From: an uncultured Flavobacteriales bacterium
GTDB lineage: Bacteria; Bacteroidota; Bacteroidia; Flavobacteriales_D; Parvicellaceae
Direction: 5' to 3'
DNA: 44,095 bases
Assembly (NCBI GenBank): GCA_947311095.1
Contig: CAMZKF010000305.1
Span: 1-44,095, forward strand
Position 1 is the stretch's first letter, and every line of letters starts with the position of its first letter. The notes under the pieces were generated by a model. The model was not told the DNA's origin. It saw only the letters and a program-made list of their open reading frames with translations, and did no database searches. Positions 11,396-38,877 of this stretch are shown here, in pieces. A program made the position numbers and the translations under genes.

Positions 11396-11492
11396 TTTTG
11401 GGCGTAACCCCGATAAAATAATCGGGGTCGCGCTATTCGTTTCAATCTTTTTATGAAAAATAAAAAGGATTTCCTCTACTATCGCTTACGCA
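11396..11492 (-). repeat. Divergent copy C of the intergenic repeat (minus orientation) with an inserted perfect hairpin
   Basis: The reverse complement reads ...CGTAAGCGATAG...T-run...AAAGAT..ACGAATAGCGCG[ACCCCGAT-loop-ATCGGGGT]TACGCCCAAAA. It shares the CGAATAG...ACGCCCAAAA end block with copies A and B. 8-bp hairpin at 11407-11428. Confidence 0.55.
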
Positions 11493-11519
11493 AATCAGCA
11501 CAAACATCAAATTATCCTA

Positions 11520-15116: not shown

Positions 15117-15230
15117 CATATTAGTTTTTGAACTAAAGTCAATAAAATAAATTGTATTTCATTGTATAACAAAAGTTTAAAATGATTTATAAAAAAAACA
15201 TTGGTTAATTAAAAAAGAAATTTGTTTATT

Positions 15231-17014
15231 ATGAAGATGATTAGAAACACATATTTAGCACTATTTGGTAGTCTTTTTTTGCTATATAGTTGTGGAGGGG
15301 AGGTAGCAAAAGATACACAAGAGGAAATAAAATCGGAGCAAAAGCGCATAGCTACGGGAACAGTGTTGAATCATGGTAAAGAAATTCCGATAAAATATGG
15401 GGGACTATTTCGAATGAATGAAAGTTCGACATTTAAAACTTTATTTCCTCAAAGCATTGGTGATTTGGTGAGTGTACATATCGCAAGTCAAGTTTATGAA
15501 GGTTTAGTCAAATTCAATAAGAAAACATTAGAAGTAGAGCCTTGCATTGCCAAAAGTTTTACCCCAAATGAAGATGCTTCTGTTTGGACTTTCAAGTTAA
15601 ACGAAAATGTGTTTTTCCATGACGACGATTGTTTTACAAATGGAAAAGGAAGACAAGTAAAAGCTCAAGATATTAAATATTGCTTAGATTTGTTGAGTAC
15701 AGCTTATCCTCAAAATAAGAATTTTTATGTCATCCAAAATAAAATATTAGGGGCAAATGAAAATTATAAACTAACTGGAGAAGGTAAGACAATTGAAGGA
15801 GGTGTAAAAGGAGTAAAAGTTATCGATGACTTTACACTTGAAATAACATTAAGTAATTCTTTGTCCTTTTTTCCTAAGTTATTGGCTCATAATTCTTGTT
15901 GGATTTTTCCTAAAGAAGCTTTTGAAAAATACGGAGAAGATATGAGAACACATACTGTTGGTACAGGTCCTTTTTTAGTGCAAGCAATAAAAGAAGGGAA
16001 TCAAGTTCGATTAAAACGAAACGCGAATTACTGGAGAAAAGATAAATTTGGAAATCAATTACCTTATATCGACTTAGTTAAAATTACATTTACGAAAGAT
16101 AAAAAGTCAGAGTTATCAAACTTTAAGAAAGATAATTTAGACATGATTGTAAAACTACCCGTAGATGAAATGGAGGCTGTTTTAGTTGGGTTAGATGAAG
16201 CTGTTAAAGGAAGTAATACTCCATTTGATTATCAACAAACAGAAGCAATGGAAATATTGAATTATGATTTTTCACATCATAAAGAAATCTTTAAAGATAT
16301 AAGGGTTAGAAAAGCTTTTTGCTATGCAATAAATAGAAAAAGTATTATTCAATATACCTTAAGAGGGGAAGGAGAACCTGCAACCCATGGAATAATTCCT
16401 AAATCGAGTAATTATGACAATACAGTAAAAAAGGGTTTGAATACAATCCTGAAAAAGCTAGGGAACTACTTGCTGAAGCGGGTTATCCTAATGGCGTTGG
16501 ATTTCCCAAAGTAACCCTTACGCTTAGTGAAGGAGGAGGGCGAAACAGTAGAATTGCGGAAGTAGTATATAGTATGTTGCAAAAAAACTTAGGAATACGC
16601 ATTGACGTGGACATTATTCCATTTACTACAATTTTAGAAAAAATGAACAACGGAAGCCTTTCTTTTTATAGAAGGTCTTGGGTTGCTGACTATCCAGATG
16701 CTTCTTCATTTTTAGAAATGTACTATGGAAAATCAGTTCCAAAAGATACGTTAGAAGCATCTATGATAAATACTTCTAGGTATCAAAACCCAATTTACGA
16801 TTCAATATTTGAACTAGCAATGAAAGCTCCTGACGAAAAAAGCAGAGAGAAACTATATCAACAATGTGATCAAATATTAATAGACGATGCCGCTACACTT
16901 CCTATTTTTTATTCGGAATACGTGAGGCTTGTAAAAGCTAATGTAATTGGCTTTCCTATTAACGCTATGGATTATCGAGATTTATCAACTGTATTTTTCT
17001 CATCTAAGAAATAA
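15231..17014 (+). pseudogene. ABC-transporter family-5 (peptide/nickel, OppA-like) substrate-binding lipoprotein, split by a frameshift in an A6 tract
   Basis: Lipoprotein signal MKMIRNTYLALFGSLFLLYSC. The reading frame changes at A-run 16427-16432. The -1 frame continues as GFEYNPEKARELLAEAGYPNGVGFPKVTLTLSEGG...SMLQKNLG, joining track ORFs 15222-16514 and 16574-17014. Confidence 0.8.
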
Positions 17015-20379: not shown

Positions 20380-20802
20380 TTGAAAAATAGAGACGGTAAT
20401 CGAATTGTACTAGCTATATTAATTGTAGTGTTTGCAATTTACAATAGCATTATATACACAAAAAACACATCTGCTAGTAGTGCTCCTCTACTATCGAAGA
20501 AAGGTATAGAGGGGGAAAAAATATGGCAAAAAAATAATTGCACCGCATGTCATCAGTTTTATGGTTTGGGAGGATATCTAGGTCCTGATTTAACCAATTT
20601 GATTTCAAATCCAATCAAAGGAGAAGAATACGCTAAAGCTATTTTCAATAGCGGTATAAAATCAATGCCTAAATTTAACTTCACTACACAAGAAAAAAAC
20701 AATTTAATCTCTTTTTTAAAAGAAGTTGATCGAACTGGATTTTACCCCAATAAAAATGTGAAGTTTAAAAGTAATGGATGGGTTTCAATAAAATACAAAT
20801 AA
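20380..20802 (+). CDS. Membrane-anchored monoheme cytochrome c, NorC-like
   Basis: 140 aa, TTG start, one N-terminal TM helix (IVLAILIVVFAIYNSIIY). Heme motif NCTACHQFYGLGGYLGPDLTN and distal SMPKF Met. Confidence 0.75.
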   Translation: MKNRDGNRIVLAILIVVFAIYNSIIYTKNTSASSAPLLSKKGIEGEKIWQKNNCTACHQFYGLGGYLGPDLTNLISNPIKGEEYAKAIFNSGIKSMPKFNFTTQEKNNLISFLKEVDRTGFYPNKNVKFKSNGWVSIKYK

Positions 20803-20804
20803 AA

Positions 20805-22142
20805 ATGGAAGCGAATAAAAGATTCTCAATATTGTTTATCACACTTGGAATAATGGCATTAGCTACAACAGTTCTAATAGGTGTTTTAGCTTCATTTGTG
20901 TACTTATATCCCGATTTCTTGAAAGACTACATTCCGTTTAATAGGCTACGACCACTGCATACCACTTCGGCTATATCTTGGATTATATTGACTGCAATAG
21001 GGGGAATTTATTATTACATTCACAGTTTAGAAAATACTTACATTTCCTTTCCTAAATTAGAAAAAGCGCATTTTTTTATTTTCTTAATCACGGGTATATC
21101 CATTTATTTTTCTTTATTTTTTGGAAAGATGGGAGGAAGAGAATACTTAGAATACTATCCACTATTAACAATTCCAATATTAATCGGATGGATCTTTTTT
21201 GGTATTAATTACTTTACTACAATGTTAATCAATGTAAAAAAATGGCCAGTCTATTTTTGGATGTGGGGAACAGGTATCCTTTTTATGATTTACCATTTAT
21301 CAGAAGCTCATTTTTGGTTGTTTTCTTCTATTCGTAATGACTTCATAAAAGACATTAGTATTCAATGGAAATCATACGGATCATTTGTGGGAAGTTGGAA
21401 TTTATTGGTATATGGAACAGCTATTTATTTAATGGCAAAAATAAAAAAGGATGACAGTATAGGAAGAGGAAAAGAATATTTTTTCTTTTATTTTTTAGGA
21501 TTAACAAACTTAATGTTTGGTTGGGCTCACCATACTTATATAATCCCGACACAACCTTGGATAAGGTACGTAGCTTATGTGGTTAGCATGACAGAATGGA
21601 TAATATTTATACATATTGTATATAATTGGAAAAAATCACTCAAAAAAGACAAGATGATAATTAATCAAATGGCATATAAATTTCTAATTGCTAGTGACTT
21701 TTGGGTATTTTTTAATTTAATGCTAGCATTACTAATGTCTATCCCCTCACTTAATTATTTTATGCATGGCACTCATATTACTGTAGCTCATTCTATGGGT
21801 ACTACCATTGGAATTAACACTAGTATATTATTAGCATCGGTTTCTTTCGTTGTTTCGGATTTATTAAAAAACAATAAACTAAATCATAACAAAATTTTAA
21901 GAATAGGTTATTATGCTTTCAACACTTCATTATTTTTATTTTTAACTGTACTTATAGAGAGTGGTATCTTTAAAGCTAGATGGATACTAAACAACCCCAA
22001 CTCTAATTTTGGAATATATCAAGAAGATTCTTCCTTTATTTATATTTTTTTCGTTATAGCTGGAATTGTATTATTTATAAGTCTAATTACTGTTATAATT
22101 CCTATTCTAAAACATTTATTAAAATCATTATTTTCGCGCTGA
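20805..22142 (+). CDS. Heme-copper oxidase superfamily catalytic subunit (C-family/NOR-like); candidate nitric-oxide reductase large subunit
   Basis: Start set at the ATG 2 nt after the cytochrome c stop. ~12 TM helices. Motifs RLRPLHTTSA (helix II His), YHLSEAHFW, GWAHHTYI (His-His) and HGTHITVAHSMG (helix X). Confidence 0.7.
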   Translation: MEANKRFSILFITLGIMALATTVLIGVLASFVYLYPDFLKDYIPFNRLRPLHTTSAISWIILTAIGGIYYYIHSLENTYISFPKLEKAHFFIFLITGISIYFSLFFGKMGGREYLEYYPLLTIPILIGWIFFGINYFTTMLINVKKWPVYFWMWGTGILFMIYHLSEAHFWLFSSIRNDFIKDISIQWKSYGSFVGSWNLLVYGTAIYLMAKIKKDDSIGRGKEYFFFYFLGLTNLMFGWAHHTYIIPTQPWIRYVAYVVSMTEWIIFIHIVYNWKKSLKKDKMIINQMAYKFLIASDFWVFFNLMLALLMSIPSLNYFMHGTHITVAHSMGTTIGINTSILLASVSFVVSDLLKNNKLNHNKILRIGYYAFNTSLFLFLTVLIESGIFKARWILNNPNSNFGIYQEDSSFIYIFFVIAGIVLFISLITVIIPILKHLLKSLFSR

Positions 22143-22281
22143 CGACAATAGACTTTTATAAGCAATAGTTGATTTGTTACAACTAAAAACCATTTGGATA
22201 ACGACTCCTAGTTTATTGTTTTTCTAGAATAAAATTTCAAAAAAAAAACAGAATAAAAAGCCTTAAAATCAACAAAAAGGA

Positions 22282-22289
22282 TAACTTTG
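22282..22289 (+). promoter_or_regulatory. Candidate -7 box (TAACTTTG) for the Crp/Fnr gene
   Basis: Exact TAnnTTTG, 27 nt upstream of the ATG at 22317. Confidence 0.4.
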
Positions 22290-22316
22290 TCTTTTTTAAC
22301 TTTAGAATAAAAAACT

Positions 22317-23018
22317 ATGAGTAAAATTGTCGATATTCCTGCATGCGTAGATTGTAAAAATAAAAACAGTGTTTTTTGTTCAATACCCAATGATGAAAAA
22401 GAAATATTGGGAGATAAGAAACTAAATAATTTATATAAAAAAGGAGAAATTATTTTTCAAGAAGGGGGAGCTTCTCACGGCTTATTTTGTATTTATAGCG
22501 GAAAAGTTAAATTAACTAAATTGGGACAAGACGGAAAAGATCAGGTTGTCCGATTTTCTAACACTGGCGACATTTTGGGGTACCGTTCACTGTTAAATAA
22601 CGAAGCCTATCAAGCTACGGCAATAGCATTGGAGGATTCTTTTATATGTCAATTATCAAAAGATAATTTTATAAACTCAATTAAAGAAAATGCATCTCTA
22701 TCGTTGGAAATAATTCAACTGTTGTCTTCGAATTTAAAAAATGCAGAAAAACAACTTGTAAATATTGCTCAAAACACAGCAAAAGAAAGGATTATAGCCT
22801 CTATTTTATTACTTCAAGAAGTTTTTGGATTTAAAGAAGACGGTAAATCGTTAGATATTATATTGACAAGGTCTGAAATAGCAGATATAGCAGGAACAAC
22901 TCCTGAGACAGCAATAAGAACTTTAAAAAAGCTGAGTTCCAAAAAAATAATTGAATTAAAAGGAAAAACCATTATAATTCCTAATTTAACGGCTTTAGCT
23001 TCCGTTTCTGGATTTTGA
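22317..23018 (+). CDS. Crp/Fnr-family transcriptional regulator with FNR-like cysteine cluster
   Basis: 233 aa with a cNMP-binding-like beta-roll (YKKGEIIFQEGG...) and a C-terminal HTH (RSEIADIAGTTPETAIRTLKKL). Cys10-x2-Cys13-x7-Cys21 plus Cys111 at the end of the beta-roll. Confidence 0.8.
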   Translation: MSKIVDIPACVDCKNKNSVFCSIPNDEKEILGDKKLNNLYKKGEIIFQEGGASHGLFCIYSGKVKLTKLGQDGKDQVVRFSNTGDILGYRSLLNNEAYQATAIALEDSFICQLSKDNFINSIKENASLSLEIIQLLSSNLKNAEKQLVNIAQNTAKERIIASILLLQEVFGFKEDGKSLDIILTRSEIADIAGTTPETAIRTLKKLSSKKIIELKGKTIIIPNLTALASVSGF

Positions 23019-30443: not shown

Positions 30444-30675
30444 TTATGTTTTTTTTAGGGCAAAGCTAATTTTTTTAGCCTATTTATATTGTAATAATAG
30501 TCACATTTACAAGATATAACTGACAGAAATATGTTGAGAAGGTAACTTTGTTTGAATTTACTTTGCTTTGTTGTAAGTTTTATCTGGAAAAAAGCTATAA
30601 ATAATTATGTGTTTAAATGTTATAAAAGTGTTATTTTGTTAAGGTTTTGCTCTTTTTTTTTACCTTTACATTGTA

Positions 30676-32082
30676 ATGAACAATAAATTCAAGCTCAATA
30701 AGCAGACTTTAACTTTTTTTGATAAAAATCTAGAACAAGAGTTTCGGGAATATACAATATCAAAGTTAGATTACTCTTCTAGGTTAGCCCTTGTTGTTGG
30801 GGGGATTATATATCTAGCGTTTATTCCTATTGACGCTTTTGAGAATGGAGTAAATTTTAATGCTCTTTTTTATAATCGGATAATTCTAGTATCTCTTGTT
30901 TTTTTTGTTCTTTGGATTAGTTTTATTAAAGGGTTTAAAAAATATTATTTTTTAATTACTATAGGTCTGTTTTTTGTTGTCGGTTTGGGGGTTTTACATG
31001 CTATAGTAGAGGATCCTGAGTATCTGTCGGCGTTGTCTCTTATTATTATGTTTTTTACCCTAATTCCATTTTTGACCTTTTCTATGGTCTTAATTATTAA
31101 TTTGATATTTTTTGTACTTTACATTATATGTCTTTTTTTCTTCTTGGATCTAGAAACGTCTATTATTATAAAACAGATTGGAATGCATTTTTCTGTTGCT
31201 TTTATTTCTGTTACCGTTTTTTATATAAAACAAAACTTAGAACGGTTAAACTATGTAAAAGGTAAGAGAAATAAAGCAATAAACGTAGTAGTCAATAACC
31301 AATTAAAAGAACTAGAATTGACGCATAAAAATATTATCGATAGTATTACTTATGCCAAAAGAATTCAAGACGCTCTATTGCCTAGTGATTTAAAAATAAA
31401 AGTGCTTCCCATTGATTTAGAAATATATTACAAGCCAAAAGATACCATTGGAGGCGATTTTTATTGGGTTGAAGATTTGGGTGAGAATGTAGTCGTAGTG
31501 ATAGGTGATTGTACAGGGCACGGAGTGCCAGGTGCATTGATGACTTCACTAGGCATAAATGGACTTATTAATTCGGTAACAGAACAACGAATGGTTGATC
31601 CTAGTCAAATTTTAACTTATTTGGACGATTATGTTTATAATTTGCTGAGCGAAACAGACGAAAACAGAGTGAAAGATGGAATGGAAATAGGAGTTGTAAC
31701 AATAAATAAAAGTAAAGGTACGCTTTCTTTTGCTAGTGCAGGACGACCATTAATTTATGTTGATAACAATGAAGTTCATAGAGTGAAAGCTTTTAAAAGA
31801 GATATTGGTTCTAAGTTAATCAAAACGCCTTACCATACCGAAATATTACCAGTCTCAAATACAGCAACCTATTATCTGTTTTCAGATGGAATGACCGATC
31901 AGTTTGGAGGAAAGCGAAATAAACGATTGGGTAGTAAAGCGTTTAATAATTTTTTATTAAATTTGGAAGAGTTACCTTTGGATAAACAAAAAGAAGAGTT
32001 AGAAAAATATTATAAAGAATACATGGGAAGTACCAAGCAAACAGACGATATGATTTGGGGTGCATTGAAAATAAAAAAGTAA
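30676..32082 (+). CDS. Membrane-anchored PP2C/SpoIIE-family serine/threonine phosphatase (SiaA-like), phosphatase A
   Basis: 468 aa. ~6 TM segments in aa 35-185. PP2C/SpoIIE motifs AKRIQDALLP, GGDFYWVED, GDCTGHGVPGALMTSL, SDGMTDQFGG and QTDDMIW. Confidence 0.85.
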   Translation: MNNKFKLNKQTLTFFDKNLEQEFREYTISKLDYSSRLALVVGGIIYLAFIPIDAFENGVNFNALFYNRIILVSLVFFVLWISFIKGFKKYYFLITIGLFFVVGLGVLHAIVEDPEYLSALSLIIMFFTLIPFLTFSMVLIINLIFFVLYIICLFFFLDLETSIIIKQIGMHFSVAFISVTVFYIKQNLERLNYVKGKRNKAINVVVNNQLKELELTHKNIIDSITYAKRIQDALLPSDLKIKVLPIDLEIYYKPKDTIGGDFYWVEDLGENVVVVIGDCTGHGVPGALMTSLGINGLINSVTEQRMVDPSQILTYLDDYVYNLLSETDENRVKDGMEIGVVTINKSKGTLSFASAGRPLIYVDNNEVHRVKAFKRDIGSKLIKTPYHTEILPVSNTATYYLFSDGMTDQFGGKRNKRLGSKAFNNFLLNLEELPLDKQKEELEKYYKEYMGSTKQTDDMIWGALKIKK

Positions 32083-32083
32083 G

Positions 32084-32467
32084 ATGGAGAATTTATTTAT
32101 AGAAAAGACGAATCAGTCGTTAGAAGTTGATTTTAAAACATCGGGAGAGCTGTTCTTAAAGGGAGTGTCAACCCCTGATCATGTTAATCGGTTTTTTGAA
32201 CCCCTTTTCGAGTGGGTAAAAAACTATAAGGAGAAAGGAGAGAATGATGTGAAATTAGAAATGTTTATAGACTACCTAAATACGTCTTCAACAAGGGTTT
32301 TAATCGAATTAATAGGTCTTGTCGAGTCATTAAAAAACAACGGTATAGGTGTAACTATTGTTTGGTTGTATGATGCCGACGATGAAGATATGCTAGAGTT
32401 AGGCGAAGATTTAGCGTTAATATCAGAAGCCAAATTTGAGTATAAAGGTGTAGAGGTAGATTATTAA
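32084..32467 (+). CDS. DUF1987 / SiaC-like regulatory phosphoprotein, copy 1
   Basis: 127 aa. Starts 1 nt after the phosphatase A stop. FFEPLFEWVKNY and the conserved YLNTSS motif (Thr67 of this ORF). Confidence 0.8.
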   Translation: MENLFIEKTNQSLEVDFKTSGELFLKGVSTPDHVNRFFEPLFEWVKNYKEKGENDVKLEMFIDYLNTSSTRVLIELIGLVESLKNNGIGVTIVWLYDADDEDMLELGEDLALISEAKFEYKGVEVDY

Positions 32468-32577
32468 AAAGGTAAATAGAAATTTTATAAAATTTAAAGC
32501 TTTTTTATTCTGATAAATAATTTTAAAGTTTTTGAGTAACAGGTATTGCCATGGGAAGGCGTTAAAATAAATAATAA

Positions 32578-35427
32578 TTGAAATCAATTAAAAATATATT
32601 AAATAAGTATTTACTTGTTTTTTTAGATGAAAGTTTAGAGAAAGAATACCGCTTACAAGAACTTGAATTAACAAAAAAAAGAATTAGAATAGCAGTTCCT
32701 TTTGTTTTTTCTATTTTTGTTGTTTCGCATATATTAAATTTGCCAACAACATTCAACTTTTTTGATTGGGTACATATTTTAGCTCCGATGGTGGTTGGAG
32801 CAACCGTCTTCTTATTTACTTATTCTCGTTTGTTTTATCGCATTTATTTAACTTTTCTGAATGTTATTTTTGTTTTAATTTCGTTTGCAGGAATAGCTGC
32901 CTCCATTACAAGTGGAGAAGATTTAATTTTTCTGTATATTAGAATTCTGTTTTTTACTTTCATTCTTTTTAATGTTTTTAGAGGAGTGATAATTTCTTAC
33001 TTTGCAATATTCTTTGCAATGTTTTTTATACCTTATTATTTAATAGAACAAAATGTAATATTGACGGCTTCTGAAGCTTTAAAAACAATGCCTTTTTTAG
33101 GTATTTTAGCCTTTTCATTCTATATAAAGCAAAGAGCAAGTAGGCTTAACTTTTATAAAGCAAAAAAACTAGTAAAACAAGCCGAAGAATTGAGACAGTC
33201 GCATAAACAATTAGTCAACGACGGGGCGGTTGGACGAATACTAGAAGGAGCTGCCGATGGTTCTGTTAGTTTAGATCACTTCTTAGAAAACGCCTTAACT
33301 GTTATTTTAGAATTACCATGGCTAAAGAGCCAAGCTAAAGGTGTTATTTTTATTAAAAACGACGACGGTAACTTAGAGGTAAAAGCAGTGAAATCGTTGG
33401 AAATTATTAAAAATAAATGTACGCTTGTTAAATCGGGAGCATGCCTCTGTGGACTGACGTTGGAAAATAAAAAAATGATTTTTGATAGTGCCGTTCCCAT
33501 AGGTTCTGACCTTTGTGTGGACGACATGTCCACTCACGGAAATTATTCCATGCCTCTGCTCTTCAATGAAGAAATTTTGGGAGTTTTAAATGTATATGTA
33601 GAACGAAATCATGTCAAACAAAAAGAAGAAGTAGTATTTTTAGAGTTAGTCTCTAAAACAATAGCCTCTGTAATTCATCGGTTTCATATCGAAAAAAAGA
33701 AGGAAGAACATCGACAAGAATTGCTAAAGAATAAAGCTGTTTTAGAATCGGCTCGAAAAAAATTAGAAAATGATGGAGCTATTGGACAAATACTCAAAAA
33801 CTCAACCGATACAAATTTAAATTTAAAAGTTTTTTTACAAGAAGCATTAGAGGTCGTATTGGATTTGTCGTGGTTAAACATAAAAAGTAAAGGTTCTATT
33901 TTTGTAACCAACGACGACGGAAATTTAGAGATGATAGTCGGAAAAGATTTGGGCGTGTTAACCACTATGTGTGCGTTGATAAAACCAGGTCAGTGCCTTT
34001 GTGGAAAAGCATTAGCACAGAAGAAAATAATATTTGAAAACTGTGTAACAGCCAATCACGATATAGAACCTGAAGGAATGAAACCTCACGGACATTTTAA
34101 TATACCTCTAATGCTAGATAATACCGTATTGGGAGTATTAAATGTTTATGTAGAACATGGACATCAAAAAACACAAGAAGAAGTCGATTTCTTTAACCTA
34201 GTTGGAAATACATTGGCAACAGTTATGTATCGTTTTAAAATAGAAAAAGAAAAAGAGTTACAAAGAAGAGAATTGAATAGATATTATACAGCAATAGAGC
34301 AAAGCGAAGCTACTATTTTGTTTACAGATTTAAAAGGCACTGTAAATTATGCTAACCCTTATTTTTATAAAAAAACAGGATATACAAGGGACGAAATATT
34401 AGGGGCGAGTACAAAAATATTGAGTTCGGGTAAAACACCTCGGTCAACTTATGAGGCTATGTGGGAGAATATTAAAAACAAGAAAACATGGCAAGGAGAG
34501 TTTTATAATAAAAAGAAAAATGGAGAAGAGTTTATTGAAAGAGCTATAATATCTCCTGTAATTAATCCCGACGGAACTGTAGAAGAATATATCGCTGTAA
34601 AAAACGATATTACAGCTTATAAAAAAGCAATTCAACGAATTAAAAGTCAGAAAGACGATATAGAAGAGGCTCATAACAAAATACAAGCCAGCATTGATTA
34701 TGCTAAACGTATTCAAGATTCGTTGCTAAAATCATCTTTAATGCTAAATACCGTATTCGATAATGTATTAGTATCTTATTTGCCGAAAGAAACGGTAAGT
34801 GGAGATTTTTATATTGCGAGAAAACAAAAAGATATAATAACTTTAGCTGTTGCCGATTGTACAGGTCACGGTGTTCCTGGAGCTTTGGTTGCAACCTTGG
34901 GTATATTAGAACTTTCACATATATTAGCAACCGGTAAAAATCTATATGTAAGTCAAATTTTAGATGTATTGACAAACAAGATAAACGAAATGCTAAACAA
35001 TGATAATGAAATAGGCTCTGATGGAATGGACTTAGCTTTGTTGAGAATTGACACAAAAAAACAAGTGATAGAATATTCAGGAGCTAAAGGTATTCTCTAT
35101 TTATATCAAAACAACGAATTAATAAAATTAAAAACAGACCGAGTTTCTATTGGAGAAAAACAGAAAGACCTCGATTTTTCATTTTCATATAATCAAATCA
35201 ACTACAACAAAGGAGATGTATTATTTGTCTTAACAGATGGTTTAATAGATCAATTGAGCGCAGTAAACAAAAGAAGAATAGGCTCTAAACAGGTTAAAGA
35301 ACTTTTTAATCAACTTGTAAAAGAATCGTATGCTCAACAAAAAGAAACGTTAAACGCATTTATAAATACCCATACATCATCGGTTAATCAAACCGACGAT
35401 ATAACTCTAATAACATTTAAATTATGA
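32578..35427 (+). CDS. Multi-sensor PP2C/SpoIIE phosphatase B: 6-TM module, two GAF repeats, PAS, phosphatase
   Basis: 949 aa. TTG start immediately after an in-frame TAA. TM module aa 35-185, GAF-like repeats nt ~33217-33693 and ~33769-34248, PAS nt ~34273-34632 (ATILFTDLKGTVNYANPYFYKKTGYTRDEILG), PP2C nt ~34675-35424 (AKRIQDSLL, SGDFYIA, ADCTGHGVPGALVATL, TDGLIDQL, QTDDITL). Confidence 0.85.
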   Translation: MKSIKNILNKYLLVFLDESLEKEYRLQELELTKKRIRIAVPFVFSIFVVSHILNLPTTFNFFDWVHILAPMVVGATVFLFTYSRLFYRIYLTFLNVIFVLISFAGIAASITSGEDLIFLYIRILFFTFILFNVFRGVIISYFAIFFAMFFIPYYLIEQNVILTASEALKTMPFLGILAFSFYIKQRASRLNFYKAKKLVKQAEELRQSHKQLVNDGAVGRILEGAADGSVSLDHFLENALTVILELPWLKSQAKGVIFIKNDDGNLEVKAVKSLEIIKNKCTLVKSGACLCGLTLENKKMIFDSAVPIGSDLCVDDMSTHGNYSMPLLFNEEILGVLNVYVERNHVKQKEEVVFLELVSKTIASVIHRFHIEKKKEEHRQELLKNKAVLESARKKLENDGAIGQILKNSTDTNLNLKVFLQEALEVVLDLSWLNIKSKGSIFVTNDDGNLEMIVGKDLGVLTTMCALIKPGQCLCGKALAQKKIIFENCVTANHDIEPEGMKPHGHFNIPLMLDNTVLGVLNVYVEHGHQKTQEEVDFFNLVGNTLATVMYRFKIEKEKELQRRELNRYYTAIEQSEATILFTDLKGTVNYANPYFYKKTGYTRDEILGASTKILSSGKTPRSTYEAMWENIKNKKTWQGEFYNKKKNGEEFIERAIISPVINPDGTVEEYIAVKNDITAYKKAIQRIKSQKDDIEEAHNKIQASIDYAKRIQDSLLKSSLMLNTVFDNVLVSYLPKETVSGDFYIARKQKDIITLAVADCTGHGVPGALVATLGILELSHILATGKNLYVSQILDVLTNKINEMLNNDNEIGSDGMDLALLRIDTKKQVIEYSGAKGILYLYQNNELIKLKTDRVSIGEKQKDLDFSFSYNQINYNKGDVLFVLTDGLIDQLSAVNKRRIGSKQVKELFNQLVKESYAQQKETLNAFINTHTSSVNQTDDITLITFKL

Positions 35428-35981
35428 TATCAAATCCCTATGCACAGAAGCATCTAGAGAAAATAGTTACAAGACCTGAATTATATTCAGATTTGTATGT
35501 TATATTAGGTGGCTTAGAGCGAAATAGCATTAGCTATTCAATAAAAATATTAGAACAAAAATTGAGTAAATTAAACTATTCAAAGTCTCTTATATCCAGA
35601 GCTAAATTGGTTGGTATCGAACTGTTGGATAATATTTATAAACATCAAGAAGAAAAATCAACACTCAATCCATATTTCGAAATATCTTTAAACGAAGACG
35701 AATTAAGATTTACATCAGCAAACTGTGTGTCAAAACAAGCGTATGATTTTTTGAGTAAGAAATTAGCAGAATATTCTAAACTAACAATTCCTGAATTAAA
35801 AAAAGAATATATTAATCAACTTAGAGATGGAAAGCTGGATAGAAAAGGTAATGCAGGAGTAGGCTTGTTTTCAATATTGCAAAGATCGGCACAAAATGTA
35901 GAATATAAATTAGATAAAGTAAAAAATGGAGAGTATTACTTTAACTTTATTGTGAAAATAGCTAATGTTCAAAAAAACTAA
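35424..35981 (+). CDS. SiaB-like serine/threonine protein kinase (anti-sigma-factor-type HATPase fold)
   Basis: 185 aa. ATGA start/stop overlap with phosphatase B. N-box-like GIELLDNIYKH and G-box-like GNAGVGLFSILQRS. Confidence 0.75.
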   Translation: MISNPYAQKHLEKIVTRPELYSDLYVILGGLERNSISYSIKILEQKLSKLNYSKSLISRAKLVGIELLDNIYKHQEEKSTLNPYFEISLNEDELRFTSANCVSKQAYDFLSKKLAEYSKLTIPELKKEYINQLRDGKLDRKGNAGVGLFSILQRSAQNVEYKLDKVKNGEYYFNFIVKIANVQKN

Positions 35982-35982
35982 G

Positions 35983-36356
35983 ATGGAAAATTTAATATTA
36001 AAACAAACAGAAACAACCCCTTTTGTATTTGTCAATTGTGAATTCGGACAGATTGAAATTTCTGGAATTTGTATTCCTGAAAATCCATACGCTTTTTTGA
36101 ACCAATAATTAAAAAAATTGACAGCCTTTCTAAAACCCATTCGGATATTTTATTCGATATTTACCTCGATTATATCAATTCTGGAGCGTCTAAAGCGTTG
36201 CTTAATTTATTGTTGGCTGTAAAAGAAAATGATAAGATTGAAATATCAAAAGTTATTTGGAAAATAGAAGAAGAAGATGAAGAAGCTAAAGAGTCGGGAG
36301 AAATGTTAGAAGAAATAACAGAAATGACGTTTGAATATGTAACATTAAACCCTTAA
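35983..36356 (+). pseudogene. DUF1987 / SiaC-like protein, copy 2, interrupted by a frameshift in a T6 tract
   Basis: Frame 0 gives MENLILKQTETTPFVFVNCEFGQIEISGICIPENPYAFLNQ with a stop at 36106. The -1 frame from T-run 36093-36098 continues FEPIIKKIDSLSKTHSDILFDIYLDYINSGASKALLNLL...TFEYVTLNP with a stop at 36354-36356. Joined, the protein is a full-length DUF1987. Confidence 0.75.
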
Positions 36357-36368
36357 TATATATTAATT

Positions 36369-37502
36369 ATGATAGTATCAAAACAATACGAATGGTTGAA
36401 TGGAGAATGGAAGTCTAACAATGAAACCGTAATAAAACCACAATTATGCTTGGTTTTTGGTTCTCGTTTTGAAATAGAAAAAGAAGGAATTTTAGCGGTT
36501 GAAGAATTAAAAAAAAAATATCCAGGTACTAAAGTTGTAACAACTTCTACCGCAGGAAATATTGTAGGAGATGAATTGAAAGATAATACAATGATAGCGA
36601 CTTGTCTTTCGTTTGAAAAAACAGAGATAAATGTGCTGTCTTTTACAATAGGAAAAGGAAGAGCCGAAAAAATAGGAAGCTTAATAGCTAATTCTTATGC
36701 GCAAGAAAGATTGTCTTACCTTCTGTTGTTGAGTACCTCTGAAGTTGATGCTGAAAGTTTGATACATGGAATAAATTCAGTCTTTGCAGGTAAAATAAAT
36801 GTATCGGGAGGAGTAGCTGGAGATGATACTAGGTTTGAAAAAACATTGGTAGGTGTAGATGAAGACATAAAAGAGAATAATATTGTGGCTGTTGGTTTTT
36901 ATAGTGATAACTTATTGGTGTCTAATGGTTCTAGAGGAGGATGGAGTCCTTTTGGTCCAAAAGCTAGAGTAACAAAGGCAGAGGGTAATATTTTGTATGA
37001 AATAGATAATGCACCTGTATTGCCTATTTATAAGGAATATTTAGGGAAAAAAGCAAAAGATTTACCTTCTTCAGGTTTACTTTTTCCTTTCTCTATTATA
37101 GATGAAGAAACAGGAGAACGAATCGTTAGAGCAATTCAAGACATTAATGAAGAAGATGAAAGTTTAGTGTTTTATGGCGAAATAAAAAAAGGTAGTTCTA
37201 TTCAGTTGATGAGAGCCCAAACTGAAAAGTTATTTGAAGGAGCTGTAGATTCAGCTTCAAAAAGTTTATTGACTAAAGATTTAATTCCTCCGCAAGTAGC
37301 TATTTTAATTAGTTGTGTGGCTCGAAGGTTGGCTTTAGATCAATTGACCGAAGAAGAATTGGAAGAAGTTAGAAGTGTCTATGGAGAAAAAACAACAATG
37401 TGTGGTTTTTATTCTTATGCTGAATTGTCTCCTGTAAAAGGAAACTCTAGATGTCATTTGCACAACCAAACACTTACAATAACGTCTTTTTCTGAATTTT
37501 AA
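36369..37502 (+). CDS. FIST (N plus C) domain signalling protein
   Basis: 377 aa. LCLVFGS, TSTAGNIVG, GGVAGDD and C-terminal GFYSYAELSP are typical of FIST_N/FIST_C proteins. Confidence 0.75.
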   Translation: MIVSKQYEWLNGEWKSNNETVIKPQLCLVFGSRFEIEKEGILAVEELKKKYPGTKVVTTSTAGNIVGDELKDNTMIATCLSFEKTEINVLSFTIGKGRAEKIGSLIANSYAQERLSYLLLLSTSEVDAESLIHGINSVFAGKINVSGGVAGDDTRFEKTLVGVDEDIKENNIVAVGFYSDNLLVSNGSRGGWSPFGPKARVTKAEGNILYEIDNAPVLPIYKEYLGKKAKDLPSSGLLFPFSIIDEETGERIVRAIQDINEEDESLVFYGEIKKGSSIQLMRAQTEKLFEGAVDSASKSLLTKDLIPPQVAILISCVARRLALDQLTEEELEEVRSVYGEKTTMCGFYSYAELSPVKGNSRCHLHNQTLTITSFSEF

Positions 37503-37503
37503 T

Positions 37504-38385
37504 ATGGAATTAGAAAAACAAGAAAGAACAAGGTTATTAAAAAGACAGATAAGAAAGTCTTTTGGAGACAAAGAAATTACTTCTCCAGAATTACTTAAAT
37601 TTATCGATTTAGTCAATAAAGCTTATCGTTTTAAGGAAGAAGAAGATTACTTTTACAGAAGGGCAGAAGAAGTTTCAAACAAAAAATATGAAGAAGTAAC
37701 AAAAAAATTATTAGAAAGAAATGATTTTTTAAATTCCTTTAATCATGGAATGGCACATGATGTAAAAAACCATAGCTCCAACATTATTGGTCTTGTCCAA
37801 ATGCTTAAAAAATACACGGAGAAGAAAGATTGGAAAATGATTGCAGAGATTATAAAACAATTAGATGCTTCTTCTCAGCAATTAACTTCAATAGTGCAAG
37901 GTTTTTTATATTTATCACACTCGGAATTTGAAGAGGGTAAGGATTATATAGCTATTTCTCCAGCTACTTTGATTCAAGAAATAGAATGCGAAATAGCTTA
38001 TTTGAAAGCGAGAAAAGAAGTTACAATAGATTACAATCTTGATGAGGTTGTTTTTAATTTTCAAATTATAAAAATTATACTTGTCAATTTAATTTCAAAT
38101 TCAATAAAGTATTCAAAAGAGAATCAACCAGCTCATGTTAAAGTTAACTTACATTGTAACAGCGAAGTCGTAATGTTAGAAGTTGAAGACAATGGAATAG
38201 GAATGGATTTAGAACGAGACAAAAAAAAGTTATTTAACTTATTTAGCGATATAAACGTAACAAAAGGCTATGGTGTAGGTTTATTTTTAATCAGGAAAAT
38301 AGTAGATAAAAACAAAGGAACGATTGAAGTTGAAAGTAAGGTCGGAATAGGAAGCTTATTTAAAATATCAATACCCCAAAGATAA
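37504..38385 (+). CDS. Soluble sensor-less histidine kinase
   Basis: 293 aa with no TM segments. ~75-aa charged/coiled N-terminus, H-box FNHGMAHDVKNH, N-box NLISNSIKYS, G1 DNGIGMD, G2 GYGVGLFLIRKIV. Confidence 0.85.
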   Translation: MELEKQERTRLLKRQIRKSFGDKEITSPELLKFIDLVNKAYRFKEEEDYFYRRAEEVSNKKYEEVTKKLLERNDFLNSFNHGMAHDVKNHSSNIIGLVQMLKKYTEKKDWKMIAEIIKQLDASSQQLTSIVQGFLYLSHSEFEEGKDYIAISPATLIQEIECEIAYLKARKEVTIDYNLDEVVFNFQIIKIILVNLISNSIKYSKENQPAHVKVNLHCNSEVVMLEVEDNGIGMDLERDKKKLFNLFSDINVTKGYGVGLFLIRKIVDKNKGTIEVESKVGIGSLFKISIPQR

Positions 38386-38390
38386 TAAAT

Positions 38391-38774
38391 ATGAATATAG
38401 ATGTAATTATTTTAGTAGATGATAACCCCATTACGTTGTTTTATAATAGAGATGTTGTGGAAGATTTTTACCCCGAAGCAAGTATTGTTTCTTATGAGAA
38501 TAGTGCCGAATTTTTAAAAGATTTTTTAGGGGGTAAATTTGAAAAATATAAAAATATATTACTTTTATTAGATATAAATATGCCCGAATACGATGGGTAT
38601 GAAGTGCTTTCTGAGTTGGAAGACGAATGTGAATACTTAGAAAATTTGACCGTATTAATGATTACTTCAAGCAACTTAAAAGTAGATAAAGAAAAAGCAA
38701 CCCGATTTGTAAATGTTAAAGCTTATATAGAAAAACCTTTGACCATTTCTAAATTAGAAAAAACTTTAAAGTAA
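38391..38774 (+). CDS. Single-domain response regulator (REC only)
   Basis: 127 aa. VDDN acidic pair, phospho-acceptor LLLLDINMP, MITSS, EKPL Lys. No output domain. Confidence 0.85.
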   Translation: MNIDVIILVDDNPITLFYNRDVVEDFYPEASIVSYENSAEFLKDFLGGKFEKYKNILLLLDINMPEYDGYEVLSELEDECEYLENLTVLMITSSNLKVDKEKATRFVNVKAYIEKPLTISKLEKTLK

Positions 38775-38869: not shown

Positions 38870-38877
38870 TATCTTTG
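38870..38877 (+). promoter_or_regulatory. Candidate -7 box (TATCTTTG) for recN
   Basis: Exact TAnnTTTG, 16 nt upstream of the ATG at 38894. Confidence 0.45.

Follow-up and report, generated by a model that had tools for sequence, protein, structure and literature searches.

The window studied here is a stretch of 44,095 nucleotides (nt) from an uncultured Flavobacteriales bacterium, and its positions 30676–38774 hold a cluster of eight reading units on the same strand, seven of them intact genes and one (siaC2) frameshifted. Judged from its sequence, this cluster is best explained as a single operon built from two known signalling modules. The first comprises two PP2C phosphatases, one SiaB-like kinase and two DUF1987 proteins related to SiaC of Pseudomonas aeruginosa. 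The second consists of a FIST protein, a histidine kinase (HK) and a response regulator reduced to its receiver domain (REC). Directly observed were the identities of the domains, the intact state of the catalytic and acceptor motifs, the tight packing of the genes and a recurrent linkage of SiaC with FIST, HK and REC. The linkage suggests, but does not prove, that the kinase module is a target of SiaC. No gene of the cluster encodes the final output.

Gene neighbourhoods around homologs of the kinase and of FIST were compared in nine divergent lineages. The FIST-HK-REC triad was conserved in all nine, and a siaC gene adjoined it in five of them, at GC contents from 26 to 44%. Within the clade of the window (loci L001, L003 and L011, kinase identity 70–76%) the cluster was repeated. 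Locus L001 carried all eight genes, including an intact siaC2 of 125 codons, with recN behind them, matching the window; in L003 and L011 the cluster was truncated by an N-run or by the end of the contig, and L003 likewise had recN downstream. The more distant L008 (FIST 57% and SiaB 41% identical to the window) showed the order giant GAF/PAS-PP2C, SiaC1-like, Plug, TPR-PP2C, DUF6272, SiaC2-like, FIST, HK, REC. In L052, Plug and a TPR-PP2C-DUF6272 fusion preceded two SiaC genes, FIST, HK and REC, and L053 displayed PAS-PP2C, SiaC, a TonB-dependent receptor, a TPR-PP2C-DUF6272 fusion, FIST, HK, REC, DUF7793, DUF6272 and SiaC. In L055, a lone divergent siaC lay beside FIST, HK, REC and DUF7793, with neither phosphatase nor kinase nearby. 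The linked loci thus varied in the sensor domains of their phosphatases, and some of them carried PP2C-SiaB fusions; SiaC was the sole Sia component common to all. In a neighbour-joining tree of FIST proteins (no bootstrap), linked and unlinked lineages were interleaved, and both groups formed by the deepest split included linked loci. Two further contigs (89749 and 7878 bp) probably carry both SiaC and FIST genes, as their sizes coincide between the two sets of matches. The preliminary description of the window had left room for an accidental adjacency of the two modules. Since SiaC is present in every linked locus and adjoins FIST-HK-REC in five divergent lineages despite rearrangement of the surrounding genes, this is strongly argued against. 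The same description had pointed out the lack of a GGDEF protein, which was borne out: none was found among the cluster proteins (Pfam) or in the gene tables of L001, L003, L008, L052, L053 and L055.

Two other gene families recurred in these neighbourhoods. A gene for a TonB-dependent receptor (Plug) was repeatedly present inside Sia/FIST clusters, where it immediately precedes the TPR-PP2C gene. A DUF7793 gene overlapped or followed REC in three Sia-linked relatives and was absent from all four unlinked triads. Its product may be a partner of the receiver-only regulator in these relatives. The cluster of the window contains no DUF7793 gene. A kinship of DUF7793 with SiaC or STAS proteins was considered and rejected (hhalign probability 0.3%); its sole profile match was the uncharacterised PDB entry 3BL4 (5.5e-6).

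The genes of the cluster are closely spaced. Only 1 nt separates PP2C-A from siaC1, which is followed by a gap of 110 nt. The genes of PP2C-B and the DUF6272 kinase share an ATGA overlap, and the subsequent gaps measure 1 nt (kinase to siaC2), 12 nt (siaC2 to FIST), 1 nt (FIST to HK) and 5 nt (HK to REC). The upstream boundary is a 232-nt gap behind a divergent fatty-acid-hydroxylase gene, and the downstream boundary is recN with its own TAnnTTTG element (TATCTTTG, 38870–38877). A candidate promoter element was located ahead of PP2C-A (Table 1). It is a weak lead only, because the underlying pattern TANNTTTG is weakly enriched in the window (99 observed against 76 expected); no exact match to this pattern was found in the internal 110-nt gap. 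A scan for sigma-70 promoters and terminators was discarded, as it gave background level (51 against 46 expected) with a model unsuited to Bacteroidota. A riboswitch or another RNA element ahead of the operon was likewise dismissed, since an Rfam search over the window yielded just a tRNA and a Flavo-1 RNA, both elsewhere. The window, from a marine flavobacterium of low GC content (31%), carries PorV and Por_Secre_tail genes in addition to the Flavo-1 RNA. This RNA (11422–11496, minus strand; RF01705, 57.6 bits) backs the flavobacterial origin.

Table 1. Features of the cluster and of related loci; positions refer to the window unless a locus (L number) is named. Values are E-values of profile matches.
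Feature	Position	Strand	Remarks
Candidate Bacteroidota-type -7 promoter element	30543..30550	+	TAACTTTG; 126 nt upstream of PP2C-A; pattern TANNTTTG
PP2C-A, membrane sensor phosphatase, 468 residues	30676..32082	+	about 6 transmembrane helices and SpoIIE/PP2C, PF07228 1.2e-18
SiaC1, DUF1987/SiaC-family phosphoprotein, 127 residues	32084..32467	+	PF09345 4e-28; acceptor T67 in YLNTSS
PP2C-B, membrane sensor phosphatase, 949 residues	32578..35427	+	about 6 transmembrane helices, two GAF_2, PAS_9, SpoIIE (Pfam 3.6e-17)
SiaB-like GHKL-type Ser/Thr kinase (DUF6272), 185 residues	35424..35981	+	PF19788 2.2e-17
SiaC2, second DUF1987/SiaC-family gene	35983..36356	+	frame broken by loss of 1 nt; Ser67 at the acceptor site
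T6 homopolymer, site of the SiaC2 frame break	36093..36098	+	7 nt coding Phe-Phe in orthologs
Stand-alone cytoplasmic FIST_N+FIST_C protein (NosP-like auxiliary sensor), 377 residues	36369..37502	+	PF08495 6e-39, PF10442 8e-30
Soluble histidine kinase, 293 residues	37504..38385	+	N-terminal helix, DHp and CA; HATPase_c 9e-18, HisKA 1.9e-4
Receiver-only response regulator, 127 residues	38391..38774	+	PF00072 3.4e-13, no other domain
TonB receptor region	L008 2489-4471; L052 267-2168; L053 4838-6814; L004 3024-6238		
DUF7793	L008 10409-11638; L053 12429-12845; L055 12448-12867		twice in L008, each paired with REC

Profile searches agreed with all eight family assignments of the preliminary description (two SpoIIE/PP2C, two DUF1987, DUF6272, FIST_N+FIST_C, HisKA+HATPase_c and REC). 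All assignments passed the Pfam gathering thresholds except HisKA (21.9 against 26.9 bits). Pfam and NCBIfam searches of the cluster proteins also upheld the remark that no DNA-binding or enzymatic output domain is encoded. When the open reading frames (ORFs) were re-derived, coordinates and spacings stood, but of the eight genes described only seven proved intact, the frame of siaC2 being broken.

Both phosphatases retain the PP2C metal-site motifs, and in PP2C-A the motifs GDFY, DCTGHG, DGxxDQ and TDD are legible. Hydrophobic segments of PP2C-A span residues 34–181. The transmembrane domains of PP2C-A and PP2C-B are homologous (23% identity, 1e-9), and their PP2C domains are 31% identical. 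PP2C-B starts with TTG, as does its ortholog in L001. The NCBIfam SiaA equivalog aligned with the PP2C part of each protein only and scored 186 and 149 bits, against a cutoff of 700. By these scores the phosphatases have domains homologous to SiaA and are not SiaA orthologs. For the kinase, the Pfam DUF6272 score was 63 bits (cutoff 26.6), while NCBIfam SiaB_fam_kinase (61.5 bits, cutoff 85) and the SiaB equivalog (31.8 bits, cutoff 225) stayed under threshold. Its profile matched the SiaB chain of P. aeruginosa (6KKO_A) at 4.6e-5, and its N-box (ELLxNIxKH) and G-box (GNAGxGL) are invariant among relatives. The DUF6272 family is small: a search of 1.84 billion proteins gave 2209 representatives at E<=1e-3, among which are PP2C fusions as well as tandem double-domain forms. 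Many representatives measure about 350–385 residues and contain two tandem DUF6272 domains; we know of no earlier description of this architecture. In L052 (2169–5369) and L053 (6903–10004), TPR, PP2C phosphatase and DUF6272 kinase are united in single chains of about 1050 residues, and proteins of about 1055 residues resembling them rank among the top DUF6272 representatives. Kinase and phosphatase, the opposing enzymes of the switch, can thus reside in a single polypeptide.

SiaC1 aligned with P. aeruginosa SiaC (6KKO_C) at 2.6e-12. The threonine of YLNTSS, singled out in the preliminary description as a site to be followed, is indeed T67 of SiaC1 and falls on the corresponding SiaC motif. 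In P. aeruginosa the acceptor is T68. SiaC2 carries the motif YINSGAS instead, with Ser67 at the acceptor site, and T or S occupied this position in 29 of the 29 SiaC-like sequences of related loci aligned with P. aeruginosa SiaC. SiaC1 and SiaC2 are only 29% identical, and L008, though distant, has a separate ortholog of each; on this comparison they are old paralogs.

The siaC2 gene had been counted among the eight genes, but it is not an intact ORF. It is 374 nt long, which is not divisible by three, and reads as two ORF pieces of 47 and 52 residues; the 1-nt deletion at the T6 run had been missed. Correction of the frame gave a product of 124 residues matching PF09345 (3.3e-24) and 6KKO_C (9.8e-6). 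In DNA alignments the T-run has 7 nt in the five orthologs L001, L003, L011, L004 and L008, all with an intact SiaC2. A sequencing or assembly error is the most likely cause and a real mutation is possible. The former is favoured because a second homopolymer frameshift sits in the window and no stimulatory RNA structure lies downstream of the break. Programmed -1 frameshifting at U_UUU_UUG was rejected on the latter ground (z = 0.5) and is unsupported. The second frameshift concerns an SBP_bac_5 solute-binding gene (15222–17014, plus strand), which is split into ORFs of 430 and 146 residues with the frame change at an A6/G3 homopolymer near 16425–16436. This split points to assembly error or gene decay.

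The FIST protein aligned along its full length with the NCBIfam NosP equivalog at 69.9 bits, where the cutoff is 450; by this score it is not a NosP ortholog. Its AlphaFold2 model (pLDDT 93) confirmed the FIST fold, the top PDB fold matches being the FIST domain of FBXO22. A sequence search with the protein detected no solved structure of a FIST sensor. The HK contains the H-box AHDVKNH despite its HisKA score below threshold, and neither a transmembrane segment nor a sensor domain was found by Pfam search and hydrophobicity. An N-terminal motif, RLLxRQLKK...LVNxxY, is kept in all HKs of the triads. In the regulator, DD10-11, D61, T92 and K115 are legible and the acidic pocket is kept; its orthologs (127–138 residues) are receiver-only too. 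The occurrence of a sensor-less kinase beside FIST had been presented as unusual; the arrangement was confirmed but is less surprising, as it is the published one of NosP and NosK (PMC12570481). About 14 kb upstream of the FIST module (20380–23018, plus strand), a cytochrome c gene (140 residues) overlaps a heme-copper oxidase gene (454 residues), which is followed by a Crp/Fnr-family regulator gene. The only PDB matches of the oxidase are nitric-oxide (NO) reductases of the NorB type (4XYD 7e-15, 3O0R 4e-9), and from these matches the locus is possibly an NO reductase locus.

As the most economical model we tentatively propose, at somewhat less than even confidence, that the cluster is a modular SiaC-type partner switch with the FIST/HK unit as its local target, in which the phosphatase sensors and FIST would jointly set the level of phosphorylated receiver (REC~P). 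The binding partners, the direction in which the signal travels and its ultimate target are what we infer here. The first module would work as a SiaABC-type switch. The single GHKL-type DUF6272 kinase would phosphorylate both DUF1987 proteins, and the two paralogous membrane phosphatases, one of them equipped with GAF-GAF-PAS, would dephosphorylate T67 of SiaC1 and S67 of SiaC2. The second module would be a two-component unit of the NosP/NosK type, in which soluble FIST controls the sensor-less HK in trans and the HK phosphorylates the receiver-only regulator. Coupling may occur by binding of unphosphorylated SiaC to the FIST/HK unit, which would change HK autophosphorylation. The contact may be the N-terminal helix of the HK, by analogy with SiaC on the stalk of SiaD. 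SiaC2 would be a better candidate than SiaC1, because it lies directly upstream of FIST in both the window and L008. Membrane, GAF/PAS and FIST inputs would thus converge on REC~P, which would act on a partner encoded elsewhere. In published systems, SiaC binds its neighbour SiaD when unphosphorylated (PMC8457831), and the FIST protein NosP binds the sensor-less NosK and inhibits its autophosphorylation (PMC12570481). No description of a link between DUF1987 and FIST/HK was found in the literature searched, in which DUF1987 itself is scarcely covered.

Several observations weigh against a SiaC switch acting on FIST/HK. The sample of nine lineages is small, and shared ancestry inflates the count of linked loci. 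In four of the nine (L009, L010, L051 and L054) FIST-HK-REC occurs without Sia genes beside it, and the triad is thus an autonomous unit. Among these, L054 (Arcicella aurantiaca QGGO01000026, 7997–16076) has FIST and a hybrid HK next to an H-NOX (HNOB) gene that is accompanied by a PAS-HK. It further contains REC, REC-Bac_transf and glycosyltransferase/exopolysaccharide genes and looks like an NO/exopolysaccharide context for a FIST relative. Conversely, L004 has close orthologs of PP2C-B, SiaB and SiaC2, followed by a TonB receptor and the heme-binding HmuY in the place of FIST. About 30 more distant metagenomic loci carry SiaB-SiaC-SiaC triads among housekeeping genes, with no phosphatase, HK or FIST within 10 kb. 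No fusion of DUF1987 with HK or FIST was present among 88 SiaC relatives, and a comparison of the HKs of Sia-linked and unlinked loci revealed no distinguishing sequence feature. In the window itself siaC2 is frameshifted. Moreover, His-Asp signalling that feeds into a partner switch, the opposite direction, has the better experimental precedent. A scan of a genome collection with the kinase profile returned three loci only, too few for statistics.

The distant triads also bear on the duplication of SiaC against a single kinase, which the preliminary description had stressed. The duplication was observed, but it is a weaker surprise: several SiaC per SiaB and the lack of GGDEF are, to judge from these and the other SiaB-SiaC loci, normal in Bacteroidota. 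In many of them (L020–L050, e.g. L033 2940–3872 and 9860–11405) a second SiaC-SiaC pair lies about 6.5 kb off on the opposite strand; GT4, RNase HII, peptidase S46 and GlnRS genes are neighbours. In L006 (3684–6358) and L007 (3710–5309), the SiaB-like/SiaC pair is followed directly by an extracytoplasmic function (ECF) sigma factor, L006 having a TPR protein as well. This suggests that the sigma factor is a different output of the same switch in Crocinitomix-like bacteria. Such varied neighbours of SiaB-SiaC fit a published proposal by which modulation of adjacent proteins is a general role of the DUF1987 family (PMC8457831).

The two modules could also be independent systems, co-transcribed for the same physiology or a shared regulon and making no direct protein contact. 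Each of them is found alone in many genomes, no domain fusion joins them, and their HK and FIST sequences show no difference between linked and unlinked loci. We nevertheless regard this as rather unlikely. The linkage survives rearrangements, gene fusions and swaps of sensor domains over the whole GC range of the linked lineages. The spacing between SiaC and FIST is very short both in the window and in L008, where it is 3 nt, and L055 keeps just SiaC next to the triad.

Under reverse wiring, the HK would be controlled by FIST, and REC~P would in turn regulate the PP2C phosphatases or else the SiaB-like kinase; SiaC1 and SiaC2 would then be the outputs, with a target encoded elsewhere. The precedents mentioned above are HptB-HsbR-HsbA of P. 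aeruginosa (PMC6482189; cited in PMC8457831) and RsfSR to SigF in Mycobacterium smegmatis (PMC10950880). The PP2C-DUF6272 fusions of L052 and L053 resemble the phosphatase-kinase fusion HsbR, and a receiver-only regulator needs a protein partner, for which the Sia proteins are the nearest candidates. In those precedents, however, the receiver is fused to the phosphatase, whereas the phosphatases here have their own transmembrane, GAF, PAS or TPR sensors and no REC. L055, which retains SiaC alone beside the triad, points to SiaC as the interface, and DUF7793 behind REC in three linked loci is another candidate partner. Reverse wiring is therefore considered improbable. An accidental adjacency confined to this organism, or a decaying cluster with a siaC2 pseudogene that no longer works as a unit, would agree with the two frameshifted genes of the window and with the lack of a FIST module in L004, but is very improbable given the linkage in five divergent lineages, the intact state and conserved catalytic motifs of the other cluster genes, the position of both frameshifts in homopolymers, typical of sequencing error, and the five intact SiaC2 orthologs.

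The cluster resembles several known systems in part. It shares with SiaABCD of P. aeruginosa a PP2C phosphatase, a DUF1987 phosphoprotein with a conserved N-T/S acceptor, a GHKL kinase that is SiaB-like, the gene order phosphatase-kinase-SiaC-target and sequence matches to the SiaB-SiaC crystal structure 6KKO. It differs by the lack of GGDEF/SiaD, with FIST, HK and REC in the position of SiaD, and by having two phosphatases (one multi-transmembrane, the other combining transmembrane segments with GAF, GAF and PAS) and two ancient SiaC paralogs. It is not a SiaABCD system: there is no SiaD, and its scores with the NCBIfam Sia equivalogs are far below the cutoffs. The NO-responsive NosP-NosK(NahK)-NosR system likewise has a stand-alone FIST protein beside an HK consisting of DHp and CA only and a cognate response regulator (PMC12570481). 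In that system, the regulator has an output that metabolises cyclic di-GMP, whereas the regulator of the cluster is receiver-only, and a Ser/Thr partner switch precedes the FIST module of the cluster only. The FIST protein is NosP-like by sequence (70 bits against 450), which does not imply heme or NO binding. With this score and a receiver-only regulator, the cluster is not a NosP-NosK-NosR system either. From its gene content it would work like a combination of the two.

Switches such as HptB-HsbR-HsbA and RsbU/V/W are comparable in that a PP2C phosphatase and a GHKL kinase set the phosphorylation of a small target-binding switch protein, and in the cross-talk of His-Asp with Ser/Thr phosphorylation. 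Unlike in the RsbU/V/W type, the switch protein of the cluster is DUF1987 and not a Pfam STAS protein, and the receiver is separate instead of phosphatase-fused. No Pfam match to a STAS or sigma-factor domain was obtained in the cluster, and an anti-sigma factor is absent too; a structural relationship between DUF1987 and STAS has been reported (PMC8457831). Stressosome loci of the Vibrio vulnificus type also have a Ser/Thr switch module directly upstream of two-component genes and no sigma factor, their families being RsbR/S/T/X rather than SiaB/SiaC. Signalling to the downstream sensor kinase was proposed for them, the interaction not being demonstrated there (PMC9237108).

It may further be that DUF1987/SiaC proteins are general adaptor switches and that in some Bacteroidota they act directly on a histidine kinase, or on its FIST co-sensor, instead of on a diguanylate cyclase; this is a cautious suggestion that we hold as possible but doubtful. 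If true, the locus would represent a conserved junction from a Ser/Thr partner switch to His-Asp signalling, by which at least two phosphatase sensors and a FIST sensor converge on one receiver. To our knowledge, SiaC/DUF1987 has been tied experimentally to one class of targets only, the diguanylate cyclase SiaD, and the family is widespread, including in Bacteroidota. The recurrent link of SiaC to FIST, HK and REC names a second class of targets that is concrete and testable. Such a link would also reveal how two-component systems and Ser/Thr partner switches are wired together in a phylum with poorly studied signalling, and the cluster offers a defined operon for probing FIST sensing and the targets of receiver-only regulators in Bacteroidota.

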